In this document: positions 5,648 to 47,522 of the stretch, in pieces
How positions within the stretch are numbered: the first letter of the stretch is position 1
How the letters are laid out: every line of letters begins with the position of its first letter
DNA from: an uncultured Gammaproteobacteria bacterium
Lineage (GTDB): Bacteria > Myxococcota_A > UBA9160 > SZUA-336
Assembly: GCA_964194645.1 (NCBI GenBank)
Contig: CAXMNF010000307.1
Span: 1 to 47,522 of the forward strand
DNA: 47,522 nucleotides
Direction of reading: 5' to 3'
The notes under the pieces: model-generated
What the model was told of the DNA's origin: nothing
Seen by the model: the letters and a program-made list of their open reading frames with translations, nothing else
Databases searched by the model: none
Made by a program: the position numbers and the translations under genes

Positions 5648-6264
5648 TGCAGTGCCTCGAAATCTCCCTGGCGCAGCGCCCCGACCAGATCGTCCACATT
5701 CCGGATCGTCGCCTCGAAGCGCGTGGCCGAGCGGCCGATGTGGCTGACGATGTGGGCGTCGCTGCCGCCCACTCCTCGATAGCCGTACTGGTCGGCCACC
5801 GCCAGCGCCCACTCGTCCTCGCCCTGGCGGCTGCCGCCGTTGAATGTCTCGACGATCGAGACGCCCGGCACAGGCCCGCGCGCCTCGTAGTGCGCACAGA
5901 GCCCCACGTTCGGCCGTCCGGGGTGGCAGGGGACGGCGACTGCACCGCAGCGCTCCGACTCGCGCACCACCCGGGCCAGCTCCAGATCGATCGCCGCGAA
6001 GTCGAAGGCGTGCTGCAGGTCTTCGTTCACACCGAACAGCAGCACGTGTCCGTAGTCGGTCTCGACCTCGCTGCCCTTCAGGATCAGCAGCCCGCTCTCG
6101 TCCTCGAGCTTGCGATAGTCGGACGCGTCGTCGAACTGGCGGTGCTCGGTCAGCACGAAGCCGTCGATCGCGAGCTCGCGCTTGTTGATCCACTGGCAGT
6201 AGTTCTCGACGCGCGCGCGGCCGTCGTCGGACTTGATCGAGTGGTTGTGCAGGTCGAGGATCAT
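5638..6264 (-). CDS. PHP-domain metallophosphoesterase
   Basis: ATG 6264; DLHNHS, LTEH, GHVL, HP, GGSDAH motifs. Confidence 0.9.
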   Translation of the reverse strand: MILDLHNHSIKSDDGRARVENYCQWINKRELAIDGFVLTEHRQFDDASDYRKLEDESGLLILKGSEVETDYGHVLLFGVNEDLQHAFDFAAIDLELARVVRESERCGAVAVPCHPGRPNVGLCAHYEARGPVPGVSIVETFNGGSRQGEDEWALAVADQYGYRGVGGSDAHIVSHIGRSATRFEATIRNVDDLVGALRQGDFEALQCK

Positions 6265-6671
6265 GCCGGCCGGAACCGGGGCACGGCCAGGCCGCCGTCG
6301 GTGTCTACGAACTCGACGATCACCGGCATGCCGATGCGCAGCGCACCGGGCTCGAAGCCGACAACGTTGCTGAGCAGGCGCGGGCCTTCTTCGAGCTCGA
6401 CGTAGGCGAGCGCGTAGGGCAGGGCCTCGCGAAACCCGGGAGCTTGATTCTGGTGGGTCACCGTGAAGCTGTGCACGGTCCCGCGGCCGCTGGCCCGGAA
6501 GTGGCGGATCTCGTCGGACAGGCACGACACGCAGAGCGCGCGCGGCCGGTGCTGTACGGTATTGCAGCTAGCGCAGCGCTGCAGGACCAGCTCGTGGCGG
6601 CCGCAGCCCTCCCAGTAAGCGCGCGTTTCCCAGTCGATCGCCGGTGCCTTGTAGGAGATCTCGCCAGCCAC
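6261..6671 (-). CDS. DUF35 Zn-ribbon/OB-fold protein (thiolase partner)
   Basis: YWEG..LVLQRCASC...PRALCVSC; SGRGTVHSFT; VELEEGPR; GTG 6671. Confidence 0.92.
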   Translation of the reverse strand: MAGEISYKAPAIDWETRAYWEGCGRHELVLQRCASCNTVQHRPRALCVSCLSDEIRHFRASGRGTVHSFTVTHQNQAPGFREALPYALAYVELEEGPRLLSNVVGFEPGALRIGMPVIVEFVDTDGGLAVPRFRPA

Positions 6672-7828
6672 TATGCCCCCTGCAGGATCAAGGTCGCGCC
6701 GCTGTGCAGGCTGCTGAGCAGGCCCCCGGTGCCGTGCACCAGCGCGGTGCGCGCATCCCGGACCTGTCGCTCGCCGCACTCACCGCGCAGCTGCTTGACC
6801 GCCTCGATGACCAGGAAGATGCCGCGCATGCCCGGGTGGTTCGAAGACAGCCCGCCGCCGTCCAGGTTGATGGGCAGCTCACCGCCGAGTTCGATGTGCC
6901 CGCCGGACACGAATGCACCGCCCTCGCCCGGCTTGCAGAAGCCCAGGTTCTCGAGGGTGACGAGCACCGTGATCGTAAACGAGTCGTAGATCATGCACAG
7001 GTCGACATCGTCGTGCGTGACGCCGGCCATGCGGAACGCCGCCTCGCTCGACTGGCGCGCGGCGATGGTCAGCAGGTCCGGCCGGCCCAGCTCCTGATGC
7101 CAGAGCGCCTCACCGCAGCCGCGCAGCAGCACCGGGGCCTTGGCCAGGTCGCGCGCTTGCTCGGCGCTGGTCACGACCAAGGCGCCGCCACCGTCGCTGA
7201 TGATGCAGCAGTCGAGCAGGTGCAGCGGCTCGGAGATCATCCGGCTGGCGAGTACGTCGTCCGCCGTGATGGGCTGACGCATCTTCGCGTTCGGGTTGAG
7301 CGCCGCGTGCTTGCGCGCGGCCACCGCGATCGCGGCGAGCTGCTCGGAAGTGGTCCCGTACTCGTGCATGTGACGCTGGGCGACCAGCGCGTAGCCGCCC
7401 ACCGTGGTGAGCCCGTAGGGCGCCGAGAACGCCGACGCCGGATCGCCGCCGGCGCGGCCGCCGGTACCGATTGCGAAGGCGTTCGAGGCGGCCGTGCTGC
7501 CGTACACGACCAGCGCGACCTCGCACAGGCCGGCGTGGATTGCGGCCGCCGCGTGGTTCACGTGGGCCACGAAGGAGGAGCCGCCGATATTCGTGCCGTC
7601 CACGTAGCGCGGCTTCAGGTTCAGGTACTCCGCCAGCGACACCACCGACATGGGACCCGAGGCCATCCCGGCGGAGAACAGGCCGTCCACGTCCTCGAGC
7701 AAGAGACCCGCGTCCTGGAGAGCACCGCGCGCGCACTCCGCCATGATCTGCGCCTCGGTCTTCTCGGGCGCCCAGCGCGTGGGGTGCTCGTAGACTCCGG
7801 CGATCGCGACCTTGTCGGAGAGCGTCAC
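6671..7828 (-). CDS. SCP-x-type thiolase-fold protein lacking the nucleophilic Cys (possible aldolase)
   Basis: HLLDCCIISDGGGA, YDSFT, NLDGGGLSSNHPG, EAVKQLRGE; IGGSS where the catalytic Cys normally lies. Confidence 0.9.
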   Translation of the reverse strand: MTLSDKVAIAGVYEHPTRWAPEKTEAQIMAECARGALQDAGLLLEDVDGLFSAGMASGPMSVVSLAEYLNLKPRYVDGTNIGGSSFVAHVNHAAAAIHAGLCEVALVVYGSTAASNAFAIGTGGRAGGDPASAFSAPYGLTTVGGYALVAQRHMHEYGTTSEQLAAIAVAARKHAALNPNAKMRQPITADDVLASRMISEPLHLLDCCIISDGGGALVVTSAEQARDLAKAPVLLRGCGEALWHQELGRPDLLTIAARQSSEAAFRMAGVTHDDVDLCMIYDSFTITVLVTLENLGFCKPGEGGAFVSGGHIELGGELPINLDGGGLSSNHPGMRGIFLVIEAVKQLRGECGERQVRDARTALVHGTGGLLSSLHSGATLILQGA

Positions 7829-35337: not shown

Positions 35338-36631
35338 AGGACAGGAAGGCGCGCAAGACGAGAATCATGGGATCGACGTCGGCCGCCCCAGCCATTTCGC
35401 GGCACGAGTGCATCGACAGCATCGGGTTGCCAACGTCGACGGTGCGGATCCCGACCTGGGCGGCGCTGATCGGGCCGATGGTGCTGCCGCAGGGCAGGTC
35501 GCTGCGGCTCACGAACTGCTGGGGCTCGAAGCCCTGGTCGCGACACAAGGCGGTGAACAGGCCCGCCGTGGCCGCGTCGGTCGCATAGGCCTGACTGGCG
35601 TGCGTCTTGATCACTGGACCCCCGCCGAGCAGCGGCCGGTGGCCGGGCTCGTGGCGGTCCGGGTAGTTCGGGTGCACGGCGTGCGCCATGTCCGCGGAGA
35701 TGAACACGGAGCGGGCGGCCGCGCGTGCCAGGCCCTGCGGCTCGCCGCCCTTGTAGGCCGCGACCGTCCGTTCCAGCACCTCGGCGAGAAACGTTCCAGC
35801 GGCGCCCGCGGCGCTGCGGCTCCCGACCTCTTCGTGGTCGTACAAGACAAGGCCGCGCGTGAAGCTGGGCAGCTCGCGCGGCGCGCTGACCAGCGCCGAG
35901 AGGCCGGCGTGGCACGAGGCCAGGTTGTCGAGTCGCGGCGCCAGCACGAACTCGGCGCGCACGCCGGCCAGGCCCGAGGGCTGCGTGTCGTAGAGCATCA
36001 GGTCCCAGGCCAACACGTCGCGCGCGTCGACCTGCACCCCGCGCTGCGCGCGCAGCTCGTCCGCGACCAGTTCCCGCAGGTCGGGCAGCTCGCCCAGGCC
36101 CGCGATCGGCACGCCGTGCTTCTGGGCGTTCAGCCGCAGGCCCTTCTCGCGCTGGTCGCGGTCCAGGTGGATCGCCAGGTTCGGGATGCGCAGCAACGGG
36201 CGTCCAAAGTCGACGAGCTCGGTGCGCGTTCCGGCCGCGGCGCGCAGGCTCACGCGGCCCGCGATCGACAGGTCCCGGTCCAGCCAGGTGTGCAGCAGCA
36301 GCCCGCCGTAGGGCTCCACGGCGAACTGCCGGTAGCCGTGCGCGTCGACGTCGCTGTTCGGCTTCAGGCGCAGGTTCGGCGAGTCGCTGTGCGCGCCGAT
36401 CAGCCGGAAGCCGCCCGCGGCGGGTGACTCGCTGCCGCACTCCAGGGCGATCAGACTCCCGTCGTTGCGCGATAGCCAGATGCGGTCTCCGGGGCCCAGG
36501 CTCCACATCTCGGTGGCATCCGCAGCCCGGTAGCCGGCCGCTTCCAGACGCCGCACCGCCTCGGCGACCGCATGGTACGGGGTCGGCGATGCGTCGATGA
36601 AGGCCAGCAGATCGGCGACGGACTCGGGCAC
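35336..36631 (-). CDS. M18-family (aspartyl) aminopeptidase
   Basis: SPTPYHAV, GAHSDSP, RLDNLAS, DHEEVGS, SADMAHAVHPNY, CGSTIGP, SMHSCRE. Confidence 0.95.
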   Translation of the reverse strand: MPESVADLLAFIDASPTPYHAVAEAVRRLEAAGYRAADATEMWSLGPGDRIWLSRNDGSLIALECGSESPAAGGFRLIGAHSDSPNLRLKPNSDVDAHGYRQFAVEPYGGLLLHTWLDRDLSIAGRVSLRAAAGTRTELVDFGRPLLRIPNLAIHLDRDQREKGLRLNAQKHGVPIAGLGELPDLRELVADELRAQRGVQVDARDVLAWDLMLYDTQPSGLAGVRAEFVLAPRLDNLASCHAGLSALVSAPRELPSFTRGLVLYDHEEVGSRSAAGAAGTFLAEVLERTVAAYKGGEPQGLARAAARSVFISADMAHAVHPNYPDRHEPGHRPLLGGGPVIKTHASQAYATDAATAGLFTALCRDQGFEPQQFVSRSDLPCGSTIGPISAAQVGIRTVDVGNPMLSMHSCREMAGAADVDPMILVLRAFLS

Positions 36632-36711
36632 GTGCGGAGGGTAGCGGACCCCGCCATCGGGGCGCAGCTCCCGCTCGGGTAGAATGGCGGCCGCGTCACG
36701 GGAGGAACTTC

Positions 36712-38268
36712 ATGTCCACGATCTCGATCCGGGCCGAGCAGCACCCGGACAAGCCCGCCGTCGTATTCGACAACGGCGAGATCACCATCAGCTACGGAGA
36801 GCTCGAGCAGCGCTCCCGCCGCCTCGCACATCTGTTCCGCTCGCTCGGCCTCGAGCCGGGCGACGGCATCGCCCTGATGATGGCGAACGAAGATCCCTTC
36901 TACGACGTGTACTGGTCAGCCATGCGCAGCGGCCTGTATTTCACGCCGATCAACTGGCACCTGCAGGAAGCCGAGGTGCGCTACATCGTGGACAACTGCG
37001 ACGCCAAGGTCTTCCTCGCCTCAGAGCGCTTCGCGAAGCTCGCGTCGGCCGCCGGAGCCGACCTGCCCAGTGCGAACCTGCTGCTCTCGTTCGGCGAGAT
37101 CGAAGGCTTCCGCCCGATCGACGACCTGCTGGCCGAGATTCCCGAGGACGCGCCCCTCGAGAACCAGCTGGAGGGCGGCACCATGCTCTACTCGTCGGGC
37201 ACGACCGGCTATCCGAAGGGCGTGCGCGCGCCGCTCTCGGGACTGCCCGCCGGAGACCCGCTCGCGACGCTCGCCGTGCAGGGCCTGATGGGCATGTTCG
37301 GCTTCAACGAAGACGATCGCTACCTGTCGCCCGCGCCGCTCTACCACGCCGCCCCGCTGGCCTTCTCCACGGCGCAGCACCGGCTCGGCGCCACGACGAT
37401 CGTGATGCGCGGCTTCGACGCCGAGCAGGCGCTGCGCCTGATCCAGGACCAGAAGATCACGACCTCGCAGTGGGTGCCGACGCACTTCCGGCGCCTGCTG
37501 CACCTGCCCGACGAGGTGCGCACCCGCTACGACCTGTCGAGTCTGCGCGTCGCGGTGCACGCGGCCGCGCCCTGTCCGGTGCCCGTCAAGCAGCAGATGA
37601 TCGACTGGTGGGGCCCGGTCGTCGTGGAGTACTACGCCGGCACCGAAGGCGGTGGCACCTTGATCCGCTCCGAGGAGTGGCTCGAGCACCAGGGCTCCGT
37701 CGGCCGGCACTGGGCCGGCGGGACCTTGCACATCCTGGACGAGGACGGAAACGAAATCGAGGAACCCACCCGCGAGGGCGCCATCTACTTCGAGGCGCCC
37801 AGCAAGCAGGCGGCGCGCTTCCGCTACTACAAGGACGACGAGAAGACCGCCAAGACCTATCGGGGCGACCTGTTCACCTTGGGCGACGTCGGCTATCTGG
37901 ATGCCGACGGCTACCTGTACCTGACCGACCGCAAGTCGCACATGATCATCTCGGGCGGGGTGAACATCTACCCGCAGGAGGTCGAGAACCACCTGTCGAC
38001 GCACCCGAACGTGGACGACGTGGCGGTGATTGGCGTGCCGCACGACGAGATGGGCGAAGAGGTGAAAGCGGTGGTCGTGCCGCGTCAGGCCGACCCAGGA
38101 GCAGAGCTCGAGCAGACCCTGATCGACTTCTGCCGCGAGAACCTCGCGCACTACAAGTGCCCGCGCTCCGTCGACTTCGTCGACGAGCTGCCGCGCCTCC
38201 CCACCGGAAAGCTCCTGAAGCGAAAGCTCCGCGAACACTACTGGGCCGATCACGGCTCCCTGGTCTGA
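36712..38268 (+). CDS. Acyl-CoA synthetase (AMP-forming)
   Basis: YSSGTTGYPKG, YAGTEG, GDVGYLD, DRKSHMIISGGVNIYP, TGKL. Confidence 0.95.
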   Translation: MSTISIRAEQHPDKPAVVFDNGEITISYGELEQRSRRLAHLFRSLGLEPGDGIALMMANEDPFYDVYWSAMRSGLYFTPINWHLQEAEVRYIVDNCDAKVFLASERFAKLASAAGADLPSANLLLSFGEIEGFRPIDDLLAEIPEDAPLENQLEGGTMLYSSGTTGYPKGVRAPLSGLPAGDPLATLAVQGLMGMFGFNEDDRYLSPAPLYHAAPLAFSTAQHRLGATTIVMRGFDAEQALRLIQDQKITTSQWVPTHFRRLLHLPDEVRTRYDLSSLRVAVHAAAPCPVPVKQQMIDWWGPVVVEYYAGTEGGGTLIRSEEWLEHQGSVGRHWAGGTLHILDEDGNEIEEPTREGAIYFEAPSKQAARFRYYKDDEKTAKTYRGDLFTLGDVGYLDADGYLYLTDRKSHMIISGGVNIYPQEVENHLSTHPNVDDVAVIGVPHDEMGEEVKAVVVPRQADPGAELEQTLIDFCRENLAHYKCPRSVDFVDELPRLPTGKLLKRKLREHYWADHGSLV

Positions 38269-38283
38269 CCGCCCCCCCTCCGT

Positions 38284-38447
38284 TCCCCCCGTTCCCGCAG
38301 GAGAGCGACCTCCGAGTCGCTCTCCGTCGCGGCAAGGCGAGCTCCGCTCGCCGTTAGGCCGCTCCCCCCGTTCTCGTAGGAGAGCGACTCTTCCTGGAGT
38401 CGCTCTCCGTGCGGCAAGGCGAGCTCCGCTCGCCGTTAGGCCGCTAG
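38284..38447 (+). repeat. Two tandem copies (about 80-85 bp each) of the REP-like unit also seen at 1069-1264
   Basis: G(T/C)AG + GGAGAGCGAC..GTCGCTCTCC stem + GCGGCAAGGCGAGC-TCC-GCTCGCCGTTAGGCCGC; ends in CTAG. Confidence 0.9.
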
Positions 38448-38520
38448 GATGGGGAGTGAAGCGCGGCCCGATCTGTGCTCTTCTCGGGGCATGGACCCGG
38501 GGCGCGGCCGGAGAGACGAG

Positions 38521-39078
38521 ATGAGCGAGCGGAGTATCGCCCCGGGCCTGCTGCTGGCCATGCCGCAGCTCCCCGACCCGAACTTCTCGCGGTCGGTGGT
38601 GCTCATGGTGGACCACAACCCGGAGGGCTCCTGGGGCATGGTGCTGAACCGCCCGAGCGAGCTGCCGATCCGCGAGGTGTTGGACCAGCTCGAGGTCGAC
38701 TGGCGGGGCGACCCCGATGCCGTCGTCTGGCAGGGCGGCCCGGTCGAGCCGCTGCGCGGCTGCCTGCTCCACGAGCCGCTTGCCGAGGGGATCGACCCGG
38801 AGCCGCGCCTGATCGTCGAGGGCATTGCCCTGTCCACGGCCCCGAACCAGCTCGAGGTGCTGGCCGCCCGCCCGCCGGTCCGCCTGCGCTTCCTGCTGGG
38901 TTACGCCGGCTGGGGCGCTTTGCAGCTCGAGCACGAGCTGGCCGAGGGCTCCTGGCTACTCGCGCCGGCAAGCGCCGAGCTGGTGTTCGCCACGCCGGCC
39001 GCGGACCTCTGGGAGGCCGCCATCCAGTCGCTCGGCATCGACCCGTCGAGCCTGGTCCCCGCCACCGGGGTGCACTGA
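38521..39078 (+). CDS. yqgE: YqgE/AlgH family protein (DUF179)
   Basis: [45 protein letters not shown]. Confidence 0.93.
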
Positions 39079-39081
39079 GAG

Positions 39082-39122
39082 ACATTACAGGTCTTGGCAT
39101 GATGGGCCGAATCAGGTAATGT
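39082..39122. promoter_or_regulatory. Putative PaaX-type operator ACATTAC-N27-GTAATGT
   Basis: Perfect 7-bp inverted repeat with 27-nt spacer directly upstream of a PaaX-like gene. Confidence 0.6.
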
Positions 39123-39129
39123 GCACGCC

Positions 39130-39981
39130 ATGCGCCCGACGGCCCGGAGCCTGCTTCTGGACCTGCTCTCTACGGTGAGCCGCGGCTCGGTGCCCGTGCG
39201 CGCCCTGGTCCGCTCGGGAGAGCTGTTCGGGATCGAGCCGAACGCGATCCGCGTGGCGCTGGCGCGACTGCGCGCGGCGCAGCTCGTGCACTCGGACCAG
39301 CGCGGCCGCTACCGGCTGGGCGAGCGGGCCCGCGCCGTTCACGGACAGGTCGCCTCCTGGCGCGCTCGCGAGCGGCGCACGCGTCCCTGGGACGGCGGCT
39401 GGCTGGCCGTGCACACCAGCCCGCTGGGCCGCAGCGACCGGCGCGCCCTGCGGCGGCGCATACGCGCGCTCGCGTTCCTCGGCTTTCGCGCGCTCGAACC
39501 GGGCCTGGAACTGCGGCCCGACAACCTGGCTGAGCCGACGGACGGCACCCGCGAACGTCTCGAGGCGTTGGGCCTCGACGCCGGCGCGCTGGTCTGCCGG
39601 CTGGGCGGCCTCGACGCGGCGCGCGACGCGCGGGCGCGCGGTCTCTGGGACGTGGACGCCCTGTGCCGCGCCTATCGCCGGCGCGCGTCCGAGCTGGAGA
39701 GCAGCGCGGCGCGGCTCGCCGAGCAGCCGCGCGAGCGGGCCATGGTCGAGTCGTTCCTGCTGGGCGGCGCGGCGCTGCGCCAGCTCGCCTACGACCCGCA
39801 GCTGCCGGAGGAGCTGGCAGCCGCCCGTGAGCGCGACCGGCTGGTCGCGGTGATGCGCCAGTACGACCGCCTGGGCCGCAGAGCCTGGGCCGGGATGCTC
39901 GAGGTGGATGGAGAACACACGCCGGCGGACTTGCGCGCCTTCGAGGCCGTGGGTGCGCTTGCGCAGGCCCGAGGAGTGTGA
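39130..39981 (+). CDS. PaaX-family transcriptional regulator
   Basis: LLLDLL..LFGIEPNAIRVALARL..RGRYRL; WDGGW; LGF..RPDNL; DPQLPEEL. Confidence 0.88.
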   Translation: MRPTARSLLLDLLSTVSRGSVPVRALVRSGELFGIEPNAIRVALARLRAAQLVHSDQRGRYRLGERARAVHGQVASWRARERRTRPWDGGWLAVHTSPLGRSDRRALRRRIRALAFLGFRALEPGLELRPDNLAEPTDGTRERLEALGLDAGALVCRLGGLDAARDARARGLWDVDALCRAYRRRASELESSAARLAEQPRERAMVESFLLGGAALRQLAYDPQLPEELAAARERDRLVAVMRQYDRLGRRAWAGMLEVDGEHTPADLRAFEAVGALAQARGV

Positions 39982-39982
39982 G

Positions 39983-40909
39983 ATGGCACAGACGGGACTC
40001 TGGCGCGATGCGCTGACCCGCGACGAGATCGACGAGCTGCTCGAGATGCACGACTGGCGCTCGTGGGCCTCGGTCGGACTCGACTGGGGGCTGGTGTTCG
40101 GCGCGATGGCCCTGGTCGCCTGGCTGCCGCACGTGCTGACCGTGCTGCTGGCGCTGTTCGTGATCGGCGCGCGCCAGCTCGGCCTGGCCGTGCTGATGCA
40201 CGAGGCCGCCCACCGCACCCTGTTCAGCTCGCGGCGCGTGAACGACTGGGTCGGCAACTGGCTGTGCGCCTACCCGATCTGGGCCGACCTGCACCCCTAC
40301 CGCCCGTACCACCTGCAGCACCACGCCAAGAACTGGACGGACGAGGACCCAGACCTGGAGCTGGCCCGGAAACACCCGGTGACGGCCGCGAGCATGCGTC
40401 GCAAGGTCTGGCGCGACCTGTCGGGCCGCGTCGGCTGGAAGCGCGTGCGGATCTTGTTGCGCCGCGACGTGCAGGGTGGCGACGGCATGCATACCAGCCG
40501 CGCCCGGGCCGGCTGGCACAACCTGCGCGGTGTCGTGGGAACGAACGCCCTGCTGCTCGCCGTGCTGACCCTGGCGGGGCATCCGCTGCTGTACCTGCTC
40601 TGGGTCGGCGCCTGGTTCACGAGCTACAGCCTGGTCACGCGCATCCGCTCGATCGCCGAGCACTCTTCGGTGCCCGACCCGACGGACGAGCTGCAGAACA
40701 CGCGCACCACCGAAGCAAGCTGGTGGGAACGGCTGTTCATCGCGCCCAACCGGGTGAACTACCACCTGGAGCACCACCTGCTGATGACCGTGCCGCACTA
40801 CCACCTGCCGCGCATGCACGAACTGCTGTGCGAGCGGGGCGTACTCGAGCACGCGCTCGTCACGCGCGGCTACCCGGGGGTGCTGCGCGAGGCGGCGTCG
40901 AAGGCCTGA
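39983..40909 (+). CDS. Membrane fatty acid desaturase family protein
   Basis: His boxes HEAAH, HLQHH, EH, HLEHH; ATG 39983 with SD GAGGAG. Confidence 0.92.
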   Translation: MAQTGLWRDALTRDEIDELLEMHDWRSWASVGLDWGLVFGAMALVAWLPHVLTVLLALFVIGARQLGLAVLMHEAAHRTLFSSRRVNDWVGNWLCAYPIWADLHPYRPYHLQHHAKNWTDEDPDLELARKHPVTAASMRRKVWRDLSGRVGWKRVRILLRRDVQGGDGMHTSRARAGWHNLRGVVGTNALLLAVLTLAGHPLLYLLWVGAWFTSYSLVTRIRSIAEHSSVPDPTDELQNTRTTEASWWERLFIAPNRVNYHLEHHLLMTVPHYHLPRMHELLCERGVLEHALVTRGYPGVLREAASKA

Positions 40910-41039
40910 TCCGGCACGCGGTGACCACGGTGGTCGGTCGAGCCTTCGCGCGGGCGGGGCTGCTCGTTGTAAGGGGACGGTCCGCCGTCCCGCGCCACCT
41001 CGCGCACGATCAGGACCGGGGCGCGGCGCTGCGCCAGCA

Positions 41040-41240
41040 GCGCTGTACTTCTACCCGCCGGCGGTCGCCGAGTGGGTCGGGAGCTATCTCGGCGGGGGCG
41101 GCAATCCGGACGCCCCCGGCCATTTCGTGGCCTGGCTGCACGCGCAGACCGAGGTCTATGGCACACCGCTCGAAGGACGCTGGTTCGACATCGGCGACGC
41201 GCAGACGCTGACCGAGGCCCGCAGCGCCTTCCCGGGTTAG
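41040..41240 (+). pseudogene. 5'-truncated sugar-phosphate nucleotidyltransferase remnant (not in ORF track)
   Basis: ALYFYPP..YLGGGGNPDAPGHFVAWL..VYG..GRWFDIG..TL; no upstream in-frame start or N-terminal GxGTR domain. Confidence 0.7.
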
Positions 41241-41251
41241 AATGCGCGCCC

Positions 41252-42424
41252 ATGAGCGGCTTTCCCTGTGAAGAACTGCGCGTCCTCGACTTCTCCCAGG
41301 TTCTGGCCGGGCCGTATGCGAGCCGCATCCTCGCGGAGCTCGGCGCGGACGTAATCAAGGTCGAGTCGCCGCGTGGCGACCCGACCCGCGTAATCGGACC
41401 CAAGTGGGATCGCGGCCAGTCGGGCCTGTACACCTGGGCGAACCTGGCCAAGCGCAATGTGTGCATCGACCTGGGCAGACAGGAGGGACGCTCGCTCGCG
41501 ATCGAGCTGGTGGCGCACGTGGACCTCGTGGTCGAGAACTTCCGGCCCGGCGTCGCGGAACGGCTCGGCATCGGCTGGGACGCCGTGCACGCCGCAAACC
41601 CGAGGTGCGTGATGCTCTCGGTCTCCGGCTTCGGTGCCGACTCTTCGCGCCGCGAGCGGGGCGCCTACGCCCCCACGATCCACGCCGCGGCCGGAATCCT
41701 GGACTACGCGGCCAGCAAGTCGGGCACGGCACCGCGCCCCACGGGCGACGCCCTGGCCGACATCACCACCGCGCTCCAGTCCACGGTCGCCGCGCTCGCA
41801 GCGCTGCGCGCGGCCGAACGCAACGGCGTGGGCGAGCACGTGGAGGTCTGCCTGTACGACGCGCTGCTGGCCAGCTACTCGGAGACGCCCTTCGTCCTGG
41901 TCGAGCCCGACGAGTTCCGTATGGACACAGACCCCTTCGACGCGGGCGCGAACGGCTGGATCGCAGTCGCGGGTCCGCCGCAGCACGTCTGGGTGGAGCT
42001 CGCGCGCAAGGTGCCCGAGATCTCCGACCCGGCGCCGCCCGGGAGCGAACTCGCTACCAAGGCTCGGCTGCGCCGCCAGGAGATCGAGCGCTGGATGGCC
42101 GAGCAGCCCTCGCCGGACGCGCTCGTCGAGCGGCTCGAGGCGCTAGGCCTGGCCAGCGCACCGCTCGAAACCTTGCGCGAGGCGCTCACGGGTCCCTATG
42201 CGAAGGAGCGCGATCTGGTCTACGAGGTCGACGACCGCAAGGGCGGGCGCCGCCTGATGACCCGGCTGCCCTATCGCTTCTCGCGCTCGCGCTCGGGCGC
42301 GGAGCGTCCCGCGCCGCTGCGCGGTGAGCACAATCGCGAGGTGCTGCGCGAGCTGCTCGCGGCGGACGATGCGCGGCTTCGCTTCCTCGAGGCCCGGGGC
42401 GTCCTGCAGAGCGAGGTCGGCTAG
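41252..42424 (+). CDS. Family III CoA transferase (CaiB/BaiF)
   Basis: VLDFSQVLAGPY..LAELGADVIKVESPRGD, ENFRPGV, APLRGEHN. Confidence 0.93.
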   Translation: MSGFPCEELRVLDFSQVLAGPYASRILAELGADVIKVESPRGDPTRVIGPKWDRGQSGLYTWANLAKRNVCIDLGRQEGRSLAIELVAHVDLVVENFRPGVAERLGIGWDAVHAANPRCVMLSVSGFGADSSRRERGAYAPTIHAAAGILDYAASKSGTAPRPTGDALADITTALQSTVAALAALRAAERNGVGEHVEVCLYDALLASYSETPFVLVEPDEFRMDTDPFDAGANGWIAVAGPPQHVWVELARKVPEISDPAPPGSELATKARLRRQEIERWMAEQPSPDALVERLEALGLASAPLETLREALTGPYAKERDLVYEVDDRKGGRRLMTRLPYRFSRSRSGAERPAPLRGEHNREVLRELLAADDARLRFLEARGVLQSEVG

Positions 42425-42426
42425 CC

Positions 42427-43869
42427 GTGCGTGCGTGGCTGCGCGCCCTGATCTACGCGCTGGTGTTGGTGGTTCTCGCCGTCGTGCTGCTCTGGTGGAA
42501 CCTGCGCCCCGTGGCCCCGTTGGCCGTGCCGAAGCGCGGGGCGCGGCTCGGCGACGTGACCGTGATCCAGCCGGGCGTCGCGCGCAGCCCGCACCGCTCG
42601 CTCACGGTCGAAGGCGAAACCATCGCATCGCTGGGCGCGGCGGGCGGCACGCCCGACGCATTCGCGGGGCACTACGTGCTGCCGGGCCTGGTCGACGCGC
42701 ACGTCCACTTCCCCCCGGCCGCCCTGGTCGGTCACGCCGAGCTGTTCAGCTTCCTGTTCCTGTACCACGGCGTGACGAGTGTGCGCGACGCCGGCGATCC
42801 CGACGGCACGTCTACCGGAACGGTGCGCGACGCCAGCCGCAGCGGGGAATTTCCCGCGCCGCGCGTATTCGCCTGCGGGCCGTTCCTGGACGGCTACCCG
42901 CCCGGCCAACCGAACTCGCGCGTGCTGCGCGAGCCAGCCGACGCCGAGCCCGTGGTGGCGGAGCTGGCCAAGGCCGGCTTCGACTGCCTGAAGATCTACA
43001 ACCAGCTCGAGCCCGATGTGCTCGAGGCCGTTCGCGTGGCGGCGCGCAAGCACGGCCTGCCGACCATCGGTCACGTGCCCTGGCGCGTGCCCTACGAGGA
43101 CGCGCGCCTCGACGACGTCCAGCACCTGACCCATCTGCCCGGCTCTCCGGACGGCCTGGTGGGATACCCCGAGGTGATGGAGCGCTGGCTGCAGTTCGAC
43201 GACGTGCGGCTCGAGCACGTGATCGAGGCGACCCTCGCACACGGCATCGCGAACACACCCACCCTGGTCACCAGCGAACGGCGCAGCAGGATGGACGACC
43301 TGGAGCGGCTGCGCGAGGAGCCGGACGCGCAGCTGCTGCCCCGCTTCTGGCGCGACGTGATCTGGAGCCCGGTCGAGGGCCTGTCCTACCTGCGCGGCCA
43401 CAGCGAGGCGGACAGCGCCCTGCTGCGCGCCGCCCTGCCACAGATGAGCCGGGCAGTGCGCGCGCTGCACGAGGCGGGTGCCGTGCTGCGCGCCGGCACC
43501 GACACGCCAAGCGCGTTTGCGGTGCCGGGGGCGGCGCTGCACCGCGAGCTGCGTCTGCTGCGCGATGCCGGCATCTCGCCCGAAGAGGTGCTGGCGATCG
43601 CCACGCGCCCCGCAGTCCCGGCGGGCCCGGCGGGACTCGGCGGGATCCGGCCGGGCGCCCCGGCCGACCTGGTGATCTTCCGCGAAGATCCGACGCGCGA
43701 CCTCTCGGCACTCGGGACCCTGTCTGGCGTAATCGCCGACGGACGGCTGTACACGCGCGAGGCGCTCGACGAACAGCTCGCCTTGTACCGCGACCAGTTC
43801 GAGAACCCGATTTACGACGCGGTAATGACGGGGCTGGTGCGGCGCCTGCTGAGTGCCGCGTCCGACTAA
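42427..43869 (+). CDS. Amidohydrolase family protein with N-terminal membrane anchor
   Basis: PGLVDAHVH, K, GHVP, QH, AGTD, PADLV. Confidence 0.9.
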   Translation: MRAWLRALIYALVLVVLAVVLLWWNLRPVAPLAVPKRGARLGDVTVIQPGVARSPHRSLTVEGETIASLGAAGGTPDAFAGHYVLPGLVDAHVHFPPAALVGHAELFSFLFLYHGVTSVRDAGDPDGTSTGTVRDASRSGEFPAPRVFACGPFLDGYPPGQPNSRVLREPADAEPVVAELAKAGFDCLKIYNQLEPDVLEAVRVAARKHGLPTIGHVPWRVPYEDARLDDVQHLTHLPGSPDGLVGYPEVMERWLQFDDVRLEHVIEATLAHGIANTPTLVTSERRSRMDDLERLREEPDAQLLPRFWRDVIWSPVEGLSYLRGHSEADSALLRAALPQMSRAVRALHEAGAVLRAGTDTPSAFAVPGAALHRELRLLRDAGISPEEVLAIATRPAVPAGPAGLGGIRPGAPADLVIFREDPTRDLSALGTLSGVIADGRLYTREALDEQLALYRDQFENPIYDAVMTGLVRRLLSAASD

Positions 43870-44714
43870 CTGCGGCGCAGCGCGTTCACGCGCGCGTAGA
43901 TGTCGGAGCGCGGCAGGTCGAAGACGTCGGCGACCACGTCGCGCACGGCTCGTGCCGACAGGCCCGCTTCGAGCAGGCGCGCGATCAGGCGGTCGATGAG
44001 TTCGCCCGGCTCCGGCTCGCCGCCGCCTTCGATCACCAGGGTGAGCTCGCCGTACACCTTGTCGCGGTCCTCGAGCGTTTCTGTCAGCTCGGGCAGGGTG
44101 CCGCGCAGGATCTGCTCGTCATCCTTGGTGAGACTCTGGCCGAGTACCGCGCGGCGCGGACCCAACAGCTCGGCCAGGTCGCGCAGCGTCTCGACGATGC
44201 GGTGCGGCGCCTCGAAGAGCACCACGGTGGCGGGCTCGGTGCGCAGCGCCTCGATCGCCTGGCGGCGCCGACCCCCGCGGCGCGGCAGGAAGCCGAGCAC
44301 CAGCAGCCGGTCGGTCGGCAGGCCCGACACCGAGACCGCGGCCAGGGCGGCACTCGGACCGGGAATCGGCACCACCGGGATGCCCTCGGCAACGGCCGCG
44401 CAGACCAGCGGGTAGCCCGGATCCGACAACAGCGGCGTGCCGGCGTCGCTGACCAGCGCGACGCGCGCGCCGCCGCGCAGGCGCTCCAGGATCTGGGGCA
44501 CTCGGCCGCGCTCGTTGTGATCGTGGTAGGAGAGCAGCTCGTTGCGCAGACCCAGGTAGCGCAGCAGGCTGCGCGTGATGCGCGTGTCCTCTGCCGCGAT
44601 CAGGTCCACCTGCTCCAGGCACTGCCGCGCGCGGGGTGACAGGTCCTCGGGGTTTCCGATCGGCGTCGCCACCACGTACAGCCCCGCCGCCAGCTCCGGA
44701 CCGGACGCACTCAC
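43866..44714 (-). CDS. rsmI: 16S rRNA (cytidine1402-2'-O)-methyltransferase
   Basis: LYVVATPIGN..IAAEDTR, VSDAGTPLLSDPG, PIPGPSA, FEAPHR; GTG 44714 overlaps the tgt stop. Confidence 0.95.
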   Translation of the reverse strand: MSASGPELAAGLYVVATPIGNPEDLSPRARQCLEQVDLIAAEDTRITRSLLRYLGLRNELLSYHDHNERGRVPQILERLRGGARVALVSDAGTPLLSDPGYPLVCAAVAEGIPVVPIPGPSAALAAVSVSGLPTDRLLVLGFLPRRGGRRRQAIEALRTEPATVVLFEAPHRIVETLRDLAELLGPRRAVLGQSLTKDDEQILRGTLPELTETLEDRDKVYGELTLVIEGGGEPEPGELIDRLIARLLEAGLSARAVRDVVADVFDLPRSDIYARVNALRRS

Positions 44715-45802
44715 GGCGAGCCGAGCACGTCGAGCAGACGCGCGTAAAAGCGCAGGTTGTGCAGGGTGGCCAACCGGATGGCCAGCGGGTCCTCGATCTT
44801 GAACAGGTGGTGCAGGTACGCGCGACTGTAGTTCCGGCAACACGGACAGTCGCAAGCGTCCTCGAGCGGACGTGCGTCGGAGGCGTGCCGCTCGTCCAGG
44901 ATGTACACGCACTTGTAGAAGCTCGCGTCGTCGGGCAGCGGCTCGGCGCCGGGCTCGAGCGTGAAGGTGTACAGGCGGTGGTGGCGCGCGTCGCGCGTGG
45001 GGATCGTGCAGTCGAAGACGGTGCGCCCGCCGAGCCGCGCCACGCTCACCACGTGTTCGGGCTTTCCGACGCCGAGCGCGAAGCGCGGGGCCTCCGGGGG
45101 CAGGACGCTCACCATCAGCTCGAACATCTCGCGCTCGAAGACGCCGTCGGGGCCGACCGGAAAGCCGCCGAACCCGAAGCCGTCGAAGCCGGTCGCGAGC
45201 AGCGCCTCGGCGCTCTGGCGGCGCAGCTCGGGGTCGCGCCCGCCCTGCACCACGCCGACCAGCAGCGGACGCGGGCCAGCGCGCTTGCGCTGCTCGATCT
45301 GACGCTCGTACTCGGCGCGGCAGCCCTTCGCCCAGGCGCCGGTGCGCTCGACCGAGCGCTGCTGGGCGTCGCGCGGCTCGGCCGGATCGGTGCAGTCGTC
45401 GAGCGCGATCATCACATCCGAGCCGAGCTGGAACTGAGTGCGCACGCAGCGCTCCGGAGTCAGGCGCAGCTTTCGCGCGCTGCCGGGCACCCTGAAGTGC
45501 AGGCCGTCCGAGCGCACCGTCCCGTGGTCCGGGTTCTCGCGGATCAGCGAGAGCGCCTGGAAGCCGCCCGAGTCGGTCACGATCGGGCCATCCCAGCCGA
45601 TGAAGCGGTGCAGCCCGCCAAGCCGCCGCACGCGGTCCGCTCCCGGGCGGATCATCAGGTGGAAGGCGTTCACCATCAAGCCGCGCACGCCGACTCCGCG
45701 CACCCCCTCGGCATCGCTGCCGCGCACCACCCCGCGGGTCGCGTCGGGCAGGAAGGCCGGAAGCGGCAGCGCGCCGTGCGCCAGGTCGAGCGGCTCCGCC
45801 AT
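44711..45802 (-). CDS. tgt: Divergent tRNA-guanine transglycosylase (TGT) family protein
   Basis: TDSGGFQ, LDDC, VQGG, FDCTIPTR, CxCxxC...HN Zn site; non-canonical FLPDAT, GGFPVG, TRDARH. Confidence 0.88.
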   Translation of the reverse strand: MAEPLDLAHGALPLPAFLPDATRGVVRGSDAEGVRGVGVRGLMVNAFHLMIRPGADRVRRLGGLHRFIGWDGPIVTDSGGFQALSLIRENPDHGTVRSDGLHFRVPGSARKLRLTPERCVRTQFQLGSDVMIALDDCTDPAEPRDAQQRSVERTGAWAKGCRAEYERQIEQRKRAGPRPLLVGVVQGGRDPELRRQSAEALLATGFDGFGFGGFPVGPDGVFEREMFELMVSVLPPEAPRFALGVGKPEHVVSVARLGGRTVFDCTIPTRDARHHRLYTFTLEPGAEPLPDDASFYKCVYILDERHASDARPLEDACDCPCCRNYSRAYLHHLFKIEDPLAIRLATLHNLRFYARLLDVLGSP

Positions 45803-45804
45803 CG

Positions 45805-46605
45805 CTAGCGCTGCACCAGGTAGACCAGCTCGCCGGGCAGCTCGAGACGCTCGGCCCGCCAGGGGCGCTGCGCGAGCAACGCCTCGAAGCCGCGCGAGTA
45901 GTTCGCCTCCATGCCGCGCGCCTGGCCGCCGAGCGAGCGGGTCGGAAAGCTCACCACGAGCTTCGGCGCCGGCAGCCAGTCGAGCAGCGCCAGACCCGCC
46001 CCGGCAGCCTGGCGCTCGAGCGTGGGCAAGAGCTTCAGGGCGAGCGCCACGTCGCTCTCGGGAAGCGGCGCGTCGTCGAGCGCATCGCCCAGCCGGATGT
46101 CGTGCTCGATCCCGATCCGGTCCAGGGCCGCGCGCACCAACTCGACCAGCCCGGCGTCGATGTCGACTCCCGCGTAGCGCGCGCCGGGCGCCAGGCCCTG
46201 CCACGGGGCCGAGAGTGGCGCGAGGCCGCAGCCCATGTCGAGCACGCGCGGGGTCGCGCCGAGCCGCGGGCGCAGCGTGTCCCAGAACTGCTCGAGCACC
46301 GGCAGCCGCTCGCGCGTCGAGGCGTGCTGCTGCATCAACACGCGCAGGGTCTGGCGCAATGCCCCGGGCTCGTCTGGGCAGGCGTCGAGTTCGGCGCGCA
46401 GGTGTGGCCACGAGGGAGACGCCGGCAGGTAGGCCCCGCAGATCTGGTGCAGCGCGCGCTTGGTCCGCTTGGCGGCCTCGCGCTCGTTCCCGCCGCTGGC
46501 GCGCAGCGCATCTCCCGCCAGACGCCGCACCGTCGTCTCGCACACCCGCCGGTAGCGGCGCGAGCGGGCGATGGAGTCCGTTACTCGTCCCAACGCCTCG
46601 TTCAC
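45805..46605 (-). CDS. 16S rRNA (guanine1405-N7)-methyltransferase, FmrO/Sgm/RmtB/ArmA family
   Basis: TKRALHQICGAY, HASTRERLP, VLDMGCGLAPL, DID, LKLLPTLERQ, VVSFPTRSLGG..GM..NY. Confidence 0.92.
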   Translation of the reverse strand: MNEALGRVTDSIARSRRYRRVCETTVRRLAGDALRASGGNEREAAKRTKRALHQICGAYLPASPSWPHLRAELDACPDEPGALRQTLRVLMQQHASTRERLPVLEQFWDTLRPRLGATPRVLDMGCGLAPLSAPWQGLAPGARYAGVDIDAGLVELVRAALDRIGIEHDIRLGDALDDAPLPESDVALALKLLPTLERQAAGAGLALLDWLPAPKLVVSFPTRSLGGQARGMEANYSRGFEALLAQRPWRAERLELPGELVYLVQR

Positions 46606-46611
46606 GAGCAC

Positions 46612-46617
46612 AGGGTA
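46612..46617 (-). promoter_or_regulatory. Putative -10 box (TACCCT) of a leaderless transcript for the methyltransferase-tgt-rsmI unit
   Basis: TANNNT hexamer 6 nt before GTG 46605 with no SD; the same geometry occurs at many other genes in the window. Confidence 0.45.
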
Positions 46618-46630
46618 CCGCGTGCGCGCC

Positions 46631-47521
46631 CTACTGCTCCGGCAGGCGTGCGGGCAGCCGTCGCCAGGCGAGCAGCAGGGCCAGTCCACAGATCAGGGCC
46701 GCGGCCGCATAGGTGTAGCGGCCCCCGGCGAACGGATAGAGCGGCGTGAACAAGAGCGGACCCAGCGCGCGCCCGAGCGACTGCGCGCTCGCGTTCAGGC
46801 CCTGAGCCTCGCCCTGGATGCTCTCCGCCGCGCGCGACAGCTCGGCCGTGAAGGTGGGAGTGAGCAGCGCCGAGCCGGCTCCCACCAGGACGGCCGAGGC
46901 CGCAACCGACCACCAGAGGCCGGCAAAGCCGAGCGTGAGCAGCCCGGCCAGCTGCAGCGCGGTGCCGGCGCGCATCAGCCGGTGGTCGTCGAAGCGCCGG
47001 CCGAGTGGACGGATCGCGCCGCCCTGCACGAGCACGGCTACCGTCCCCACCCCCGCGAGCAGCAGGCCCACCTGCCCGGGTCCCCCCGCCAGGCGGTCGG
47101 CAACCAGGAAGCCGATGGTGCTCTCCAGCCCCGTGCGGCTGGTCTGCACCAGCAGGCTGTACGACAGGAACGGGGCCAGCGCGAGCGCGATGCGCCGCGC
47201 GCCGAGCCCCTGCGCGAGTAGTTCGCTGCGGCGTGCCGCGCTGCGCGCGCGGATTTCCGGGGTGAGGCTCTCCGGGAGCAACAGGGCAACGGCAAGCGCG
47301 GCGAACGCGCCGATCCCGGACGCCAGGAAGAACGGCGCCGCCAACCCATAGCGCGCGATCGCACCGCCGAACGCCGGCCCGAGCAGGACGCCCAGGCCGA
47401 TCGCCGCGCCCACCGTGCCGAGTGCCACATTGCGCTTCTCGGGCGCGCTGACGTCGGCCGTATACGACATGATCGACGGCAGTGCGGCGGCGGCCAAGGT
47501 CCCGCCTAGCAGACGTGCGCC
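46631..47521 (-). CDS. MFS transporter, TetA/DHA1-like (5'-partial)
   Basis: SYTADVS..RNVALG..GLGVLLGPAFGG motif C region; QGEAQG..SLGRALGP; frame runs off the window. Confidence 0.88.
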   Translation of the reverse strand, partial: GARLLGGTLAAAALPSIMSYTADVSAPEKRNVALGTVGAAIGLGVLLGPAFGGAIARYGLAAPFFLASGIGAFAALAVALLLPESLTPEIRARSAARRSELLAQGLGARRIALALAPFLSYSLLVQTSRTGLESTIGFLVADRLAGGPGQVGLLLAGVGTVAVLVQGGAIRPLGRRFDDHRLMRAGTALQLAGLLTLGFAGLWWSVAASAVLVGAGSALLTPTFTAELSRAAESIQGEAQGLNASAQSLGRALGPLLFTPLYPFAGGRYTYAAAALICGLALLLAWRRLPARLPEQ

Positions 47522-47522
47522 G

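Follow-up and report, generated by a model that had tools for sequence, protein, structure and literature searches.

A transglycosylase paralog paired with G1405 methyltransferase genes points to a possible new ribosome modification linked to aminoglycoside resistance

Enzymes of the tRNA-guanine transglycosylase (TGT) family carry out base exchange, which to our knowledge has been described for tRNA, DNA and one protein target and not for rRNA. Beyond Tgt itself (EC 2.4.2.29), the archaeosine TGT acts on G15 of tRNA with preQ0, DpdA acts on DNA with preQ0, and Cap10 performs protein deazaguanylation. These three enzymes serve as a precedent for a TGT scaffold that was re-aimed at new substrates with its 7-deazaguanine chemistry kept. 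Here, we analyze a further TGT-family gene in the window, by which we mean the whole 47,522-nt stretch of contig CAXMNF010000307.1 (assembly GCA_964194645.1) from an uncultured bacterium. The gene lies between those for a homolog of the FmrO/Sgm/Rmt-type 16S rRNA (G1405-N7) methyltransferases and for RsmI, the 16S rRNA C1402 2′-O-methyltransferase. Judged by its sequence, the window TGT is a member of a discrete FmrO-linked subfamily, and this subfamily is a near-obligate genomic partner of FmrO-type methyltransferase genes. The pairing suggests a ribosome modification, so far undescribed, that is tied to aminoglycoside resistance.

The three genes of the window unit are as follows:

45805..46611, minus strand, GTG start: FmrO/Sgm/Rmt-type 16S rRNA (G1405-N7) methyltransferase homolog, 268 aa (PF07091)
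44711..45802, minus strand, ATG start: TGT-family base-exchange gene of the FmrO-linked subfamily, 363 aa (PF01702)
43866..44714, minus strand, GTG start: rsmI, 16S rRNA C1402 2′-O-methyltransferase, 282 aa (TIGR00096, PF00590)

The methyltransferase gene ends in a TAG codon (45807-45805) that is followed, after 2 nt, by the ATG of tgt at 45802, and the GTG of rsmI (44714-44712) overlaps the TGA of tgt (44713-44711) in a shared GTGA. The coordinates confirm the tight packing that the initial annotation of this DNA had described. We consider this packing to go beyond chance, given that the genes are found paired in different phyla and in several arrangements. An alternative start, the GTG at 46605 that the initial annotation had taken, would give a methyltransferase of 266 aa.

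The methyltransferase matches PF07091 (FmrO) from end to end (E = 1.5e-60; residues 16-264 of 268, profile positions 1-254 of 255). Among solved structures, Sgm is the closest (3LCU; E = 1.2e-60, residues 7-268), and RmtB, RmtC and ArmA chains match it likewise, so that the enzyme is expected, from its sequence relatives, to make N7-methylguanine (m7G) at position 1405. It differs from the Sgm, Rmt and ArmA enzymes in scoring below the equivalog cut-off of the general Rmt model NF000466 (226.8 bits; cut-off 250), in having a TGT partner and in lying outside any aminoglycoside biosynthetic cluster; the surroundings in the window are an ordinary chromosomal context. The window genome yielded one FmrO gene and one rsmI. 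Compared with housekeeping RsmI and RsmH, the window RsmI is a standard member, with 229 bits on TIGR00096 (cut-off 167.9) and a match to PF00590; on the model of the C-terminal RsmI_C domain (PF23016) it scores 17.8 bits, under the cut-off of 27. Together with the PF01702 match of the TGT, these results bear out the assignment of the three genes to the FmrO, TGT and RsmI families.

The window TGT shares the fold family of Tgt, matching PF01702 over residues 5-357 (E = 7.2e-88) and the Z. mobilis Tgt chains at an E value of about 1e-69. On the Tgt equivalog model TIGR00430 it scores 298.4 bits, below the cut-off of 306.75, and its match to the ArcTGT model is weak (69 bits; cut-off 350). Its sequence carries the motifs PDAT (19-22), DSGGFQ (77-82), GFGGFPVGP (210-218) and FDCTIPTRDARH (263-274), followed by the zinc motif CDCPCC (317-322). 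Compared with Z. mobilis Tgt, it is shorter by approximately 25 residues at each end and has an insertion of at least 10 residues before the zinc motif.

We surveyed the corresponding alignment columns in 120 database relatives of 52-75% identity, using Z. mobilis Tgt numbering (alignment to 1ozm_A) here and below. The machinery of base exchange is shared with Tgt: Asp102, Asp156, Asp280, Gly230, Cys158, Arg286 and Arg289 are kept in 120/120 relatives and Gln203 in 119, and the zinc site is represented by Cys318, Cys323 and His349 in all 120 and by Cys320 in 86. The window TGT has the catalytic Asp102/Asp280 pair, the base contacts Asp156, Gln203 and Gly230, Cys158 and the zinc site. Around this core, V45D, L231W and M260L are each found in 119 of the 120 relatives, A232P, S287D and G288A in all of them, and Glu235 is retained in only 29. 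Val45 is presumably part of the lining of the ribose-34 pocket of Tgt. The resulting subfamily signature is Asp45-Ala46, Trp/Phe231-Pro232, Leu260 and Asp/Glu287-Ala288, with the motifs PDAT, GG[WF]P and PTR[DE]AR; at positions 45, 46, 231, 232, 260, 287 and 288 the window TGT reads D, A, F, P, L, D and A, and it has Pro at 235. PDAT, GG[FW]P and TRDARH, which had been picked out from the window sequence as marks of a TGT subfamily, are present and do delimit a real one. Tyr106Phe was considered as a signature residue and dropped; canonical copies carry Phe as well, and the replacement is reported as neutral and common in the accessible part of PMC3660597.

A quick maximum-likelihood tree of 106 rows, with about half of 79 canonical tgt loci as the outgroup, placed 55/55 subfamily rows on one side of a long branch (length 1.53; Shimodaira-Hasegawa-like approximate likelihood ratio test, SH-aLRT, 85). 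A subfamily profile separates the same group by score: its members reach at least 499 bits (606.5 for the window TGT), and no other TGT in the phylum sample described below exceeds 325.

The window TGT is an addition to the usual gene. In the window assembly (2.86 Mb, 379 contigs, 88% complete), a canonical tgt is split between two contigs: its 5′ part follows queA where contig C336 ends, and the remainder opens contig C45. The fragment matches PF01702 with 355.5 bits, in an alignment that covers only 263 positions of the profile. Whether such a second, canonical copy exists was a question raised by the initial annotation, and its presence beside queA makes the window TGT an extra paralog, linked to rRNA methyltransferase genes and not to queA. 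(G, C and L numbers are our labels for genomes, contigs and loci.)

Across the class of the window organism, FmrO scores above the cut-off in 5/225 genomes, and all five copies adjoin a TGT-like gene. G009 and G049 have the order rsmI-tgt-fmrO, unlike the fmrO-tgt-rsmI of the window; the rsmI of these modules is the only one found in each genome, and its product ends at profile position 222 of 275. These two genomes, as well as G112 and G113, each have two canonical-type TGTs in addition to the FmrO-linked one. The tree places the window TGT in another subclade than the TGTs of G009 and G049. The module seems to have entered the family of the window organism more than once.

Most genomes of the class (G001-G040, and G009, G049, G112 and G113 with loci L051-L058) have two canonical-type TGT genes, whose PF01702 scores are 460-511 bits. 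The type found after queA in the window genome reads Val-Ser at 231-232; the other has Leu-Gly there and, in G009, also Phe at 158. G112 (contig C100, L038) and G113 (contig C188, L045) contain a divergent pair directly after a QueC gene, consisting of an FmrO-like gene (59-66 bits) and then a TGT-like gene without the PDAT region (PF01702 score approximately 140 bits). This pair sits on a very long tree branch and may be a separate system.

To what extent the pairing holds beyond this class was read from 81 loci, comprising the best 80 of 447 confirmed matches to two TGT-only peptide patterns, a set biased toward closer relatives of the window TGT, and L059, the one subfamily member among the 80 loci of a single-protein metagenome scan (the other 79 were canonical tgt loci). 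FmrO is adjacent to the TGT in 56 of the 81, RsmI in 44 and either one in 69. Of the 36 loci that extend 1 kb or more to each side of the TGT, 29 have FmrO next to it and 35 have FmrO or RsmI, leaving one with neither. The module occurs in at least 11 gene orders. Unbiased clustering of the flanking open reading frames, with Pfam annotation of representatives, found nothing else recurrent beside the TGT-FmrO/RsmI genes in the 81 loci; specifically, no tRNA-modification gene recurs beside the TGT, and no dpd-like genes were seen. The remaining flanks are lineage-specific (SIS, formiminotransferase, ArgRS, urocanase, adenosine deaminase, RelA/SpoT, LeuRS, NUDIX and IGPD).

In a sample of 301 Chloroflexota genomes, which includes one unpublished genome (G586), the subfamily is present in 57 and FmrO in 61, and every one of the 57 subfamily carriers has FmrO too. 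Owing to the kinship of the genomes, the figures for this sample are to be read as a description of the pattern and not as a test. The four genomes with FmrO only are G675 and G797 (full-length), G683 (internal stop codons) and G746 (a partial match). FmrO lies within 1.5 kb of the TGT at 25 of 30 Chloroflexota loci, and the other five genomes each have one FmrO elsewhere. The two proteins also share their history, as the pairwise distances of TGT and FmrO over 66 loci correlate with a Mantel r of 0.865, a value reached by 0/999 permutations. The linkage that the initial annotation had proposed to look for, between this TGT and FmrO-family and rsmI genes, is thus conserved across phyla in the metagenome loci, the class genomes and Chloroflexota.

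Several individual loci extend this picture. Tandem FmrO-family genes stand beside the TGT paralog in five Chloroflexota genomes (G624, G696, G790, G814 and G732), and in L198 an additional FmrO gene lies upstream of rsmI, on the other strand. At G728:C39:708437-709522, a subfamily TGT is read through one in-frame TGA, for which a pseudogene, a sequencing error or recoding are all possible. On a 296-kb marine metagenome contig, the TGT at 5953-7125 of L171 is 99.5% identical to a protein of a Solwaraspora isolate and has FmrO 56 nt downstream, indicating that cultured Micromonosporaceae carry the TGT-FmrO pair.

Two single-member proteins join domains of the module. P0122 (709 aa) consists of a TGT domain, an acidic linker and an FmrO domain; P0121 (671 aa) combines RsmH and TGT, with a junction that could be a frameshift. 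RsmH, like RsmI a C1402 enzyme, also stands beside the module as a separate gene in L220 and L231 and on rmtG plasmids.

These data bear directly on whether the genes share a function at all. The TGT might be a passenger beside FmrO genes, or a DNA- or defense-type TGT resembling DpdA or Cap10. For this speaks that the MFS gene next to the window unit and other neighbors are lineage-specific, and that a clinical paper, in its accessible part, treats a tgt by rmtG as mere context (PMC3904158). However, the linkage survives the many gene orders across phyla, co-occurrence is complete in all 57 Chloroflexota carriers, the distances are correlated, and one fusion exists. Compared with the archaeosine TGT, DpdA and Cap10, the window TGT has other partners, its match to the ArcTGT model is only weak, no dpd or CBASS genes lie nearby, and it matches none of the PADLOC defense-system families. 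We regard this explanation as extremely improbable, and largely refuted already by the comparative data.

The subfamily also occurs on plasmids, where 12 of 69 records with a TGT match carry it at 48-49% identity. Four plasmids were examined and contain the arrays rsmH-tgt-rmtG (with overlapping genes), tgt-metallophosphoesterase-rmtB2, tgt-rmtD2 and a tgt-rmtG tandem array, all of which adjoin IS91/ISCR-type elements. Their TGTs have the signature pairs DA, WP and EA and lie inside the subfamily clade of the tree. The rmtG, rmtD2 and rmtB2 arrays of these clinical Enterobacterales plasmids resemble the window in having the same TGT subfamily directly beside an FmrO-family gene, and the rmtG arrays also in including a gene for a C1402 methyltransferase, which on the plasmid is RsmH. 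They differ in being mobilized by IS91/ISCR elements and in having RsmH or no C1402 enzyme, whereas the window unit is chromosomal, is ordered fmrO-tgt-rsmI and has a methyltransferase closest to Sgm.

On the Providencia plasmid (L282), the metallophosphoesterase gene between tgt and rmtB2 occupies 6146-6955. On a K. pneumoniae plasmid (L281), a short coding sequence annotated as a 'SAM-dependent methyltransferase' follows rmtG at 6833-7129 and may be the gene that PMC9311965 calls 'rsmL'. Both genes may be remnants of the source operons.

The adjacency itself, which the initial annotation had presented as a candidate new system, is already in print. The accessible part of PMC3904158 mentions a 'putative tRNA ribosyltransferase CDS' (coding sequence) upstream of rmtG as context and without a function, and that of PMC9311965 places rmtG in an operon with rsmH, tgt and rsmL, again with no function stated. 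A full-text literature search returned no account of the subfamily, its signature, the near-obligate pairing or a function. The gene identities are ordinary, and the tgt-rmtG/rmtD adjacency is known; what appears to be new here is the subfamily, its signature and the near-obligate pairing across phyla.

The base-binding pocket differs from that of Tgt. In Z. mobilis Tgt, the Leu231/Ala232 peptide flips between two states: its NH is turned in for guanine, reaching N7 via a water molecule, or, when preQ1 is bound, its carbonyl points inward to the aminomethyl group, and Glu235 holds either state (PMC3660597 and PMC7687107, in their accessible parts). In the window TGT, this switch and Glu235 are replaced by Phe-Pro at 231-232 and Pro at 235. 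As Pro232 has no amide hydrogen and Glu235 is not conserved, only the carbonyl-out state would be left. Such a pocket would be unable to present an amide NH toward N7 of ordinary guanine and would suit bases whose position 7 bears a cationic or donor group, such as preQ1 and N7-methylguanine. It may therefore fit m7G, which is both the product of the partner enzyme and a chemically good leaving base.

The recurring partners point to the same region of the ribosome, as FmrO (G1405), RsmI and RsmH (both C1402) all act on one short strand of helix 44. A helix-44 modification operon is the most economical reading of this pattern. We tentatively favor it, at a little less than an even chance, in the form that the TGT paralog swaps one of the guanines in 16S rRNA, with methylated G1405 as the likeliest target. 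From the identity of its partners we infer that the TGT would act on 16S rRNA nucleotides of approximately 1400-1407, and not on tRNA position 34. Arm/Rmt enzymes are reported to interfere with other enzymes of this strand: ArmA blocks RsmI at C1402, and Sgm and RmtC block RsmF at C1407 (as cited in the accessible part of PMC12406665). This interference is a reason to co-express the genes; the literature on it involves no TGT.

We propose a more specific version of the helix-44 reading, in three steps. The Sgm/Rmt-type partner would first make m7G1405. The TGT would then expel the cationic N7-methylated guanine, an activated leaving base, and would insert a 7-substituted 7-deazaguanine of the preQ1/preQ0 type, resulting in a decoding-site G without N7. 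The subfamily would in this case be the first rRNA-guanine transglycosylase, performing a methylation-primed exchange of m7G1405 for a preQ1/preQ0-type deazaguanine. We consider this full scheme possible yet rather doubtful.

Alternatively, the paralog may still be a tRNA enzyme, one that modifies G34 or some other guanine of tRNA but prefers another base or other tRNAs, in which case the operon would be a decoding-fidelity module that offsets the side effects of m7G1405 on translation. The whole catalytic and base-face apparatus is retained, as are Cys158 and the Arg286/Arg289 region; canonical TGT, and with it the queuosine pathway, is present in 54/56 Chloroflexota carriers; and Rmt/Arm enzymes are reported to alter translational fidelity and to carry fitness costs (PMC12406665, accessible part). 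Yet no queA-like gene recurs in the 81 loci, where the recurring partners are all helix-44 rRNA enzymes, the score lies under the Tgt equivalog cut-off, and the two termini have each lost the residues noted above. Moreover, Pro stands at 232 in every relative surveyed, a position where Ala232Ser in Z. mobilis Tgt already costs approximately 100-fold in kcat (accessible part of PMC3660597). On balance, we judge a tRNA target to be unlikely, though a serious contender.

Genes of 7-deazaguanine synthesis appear inside some modules and speak to what would be inserted. L198 has rsmI-tgt-queC-radical SAM-queD-fmrO on one strand, and L215 has rsmI-tgt-queC-radical SAM-queD; with the preQ0-synthesis genes queC-queE-queD inside the module, these loci point to insertion of a deazaguanine and not to a reset of m7G to G. 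QueC is also commoner in Chloroflexota carriers (23/57) than in non-carriers (58/244, or 31/244 at 173 bits or more), and it adjoins the divergent pair of FmrO-like and TGT-like genes in G112 and G113. That carriers must make their own preQ0 was considered and rejected, as QueC was not found in 4 of 5 carrier genomes examined for it, nor in 34 of the 57 Chloroflexota carriers; the deazaguanine base would often have to be salvaged. In the window genome, two tandem PTPS/QueD-like genes with a weak QueF-like match alongside occur at G000:C195:2752-3970 (L286-L288).

The same loci could be read in the opposite order, with the TGT inserting a 7-deazaguanine first and the FmrO-type partner then methylating the inserted base or its side chain and not N7 of G1405. 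The position of queC-radical SAM-queD between tgt and fmrO in L198, the QueC gene beside the divergent pair of G112 and G113, and the tandem FmrO paralogs of several genomes would all be consistent with this order. However, 7-deazaguanine has no N7 to methylate, the window methyltransferase aligns end to end with Sgm, and the RmtG, RmtD2 and RmtB2 enzymes encoded beside subfamily TGTs are annotated G1405-N7 resistance methyltransferases, which work without a tgt. We consider the reversed order improbable.

The initial annotation had tied the TGT to the m7G1405 enzyme and to chemistry at the N7/C7 position, and this part is supported by the linkage and by the changed region near position 7 of the base. 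It had also offered a reversible switch, in which the TGT exchanges m7G1405 back to G and resets aminoglycoside resistance, and this is the least likely version of that interpretation. A pocket without an NH to read N7 of plain guanine does fit m7G as the outgoing base. Set against this, a writer and an eraser that are presumably co-transcribed (2 nt apart), once fused and always co-inherited, as the distance correlation indicates, would form a futile cycle; the deazaguanine synthesis genes of L198 and L215 would have no role; and a carbonyl-only pocket would probably disfavor guanine as the incoming base. We give such an eraser very little probability.

Several observations weigh against the helix-44 reading that we favor. 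The rRNA target rests on guilt by association, and the co-occurrence counts look statistically stronger than they are because the genomes are related to each other. Cloned rmt genes confer resistance without a tgt partner, so m7G1405 can form in the absence of the TGT. In mature 30S subunits G1405 is base-paired, and we know of no transglycosylase that acts on rRNA. At position 231, the window TGT has Phe and not the Trp of most relatives. QueC was not found in G000 (the window genome, 88% complete), G009 (100% complete), G049, G548 or G779, nor in 34 of the 57 Chloroflexota carriers. Finally, the canonical TGT of those 54 carriers is just as compatible with a paralog that relies on the tRNA queuosine pathway or operates inside it.

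The unit is flanked in the window by the following features:

46631..47521 (runs off the window end), minus strand: MFS transporter gene, 3′ part (PF07690 MFS_1, E = 7.1e-28)
46612..46630, minus strand: 19-nt spacer from the MFS stop codon (TAG, 46633-46631) to the first methyltransferase GTG, containing TACCCT at 46617-46612
42427..43869, plus strand: convergent amidohydrolase gene that bounds the unit (PF01979, E = 1.2e-16)

The gene order on the minus strand is therefore MFS, fmrO, tgt, rsmI, and the 3′ end of the amidohydrolase gene overlaps the rsmI stop codon. The unit had been credited with its own -10 box, a claim that the scan does not sustain: TACCCT directly abuts the GTG at 46611, and a sigma-70 consensus scan of 43600-47522 scored no promoter-like and no terminator-like sites. 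With the MFS gene on the same strand and its stop codon 19 nt upstream, fmrO-tgt-rsmI may be transcribed from further upstream. No MFS homolog stands beside the TGT in the 81 related loci, and MFS is not a conserved member of the module. Base composition is uniform in the window (GC content 0.67-0.73), in keeping with a chromosomal context. The region 36601-42424 encodes an AMP-binding enzyme, an AlgH-like protein, a PaaX-like regulator, a fatty-acid desaturase and a family III CoA-transferase, an ordinary chromosomal setting in which no antibiotic biosynthetic cluster is present.

If a deazaguanine is indeed installed at position 1405, many environmental bacteria would have a deazaguanine in their 16S rRNA, and plasmids with rmtG, rmtD2 and rmtB2 would carry a second, unrecognized ribosome-modifying enzyme. 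The paralog travels with acquired pan-aminoglycoside resistance genes in hospital isolates, where it is annotated as an ordinary tgt and ignored, and knowledge of its function would help to explain what the resistance modules do in the organisms that they come from, and how they arose there. Near-perfect co-occurrence and an active-site signature make this a well-defined protein family that is open to simple biochemical experiments, and a dedicated TGT paralog tied to decoding-site methyltransferases would open base exchange in rRNA to a direct test.

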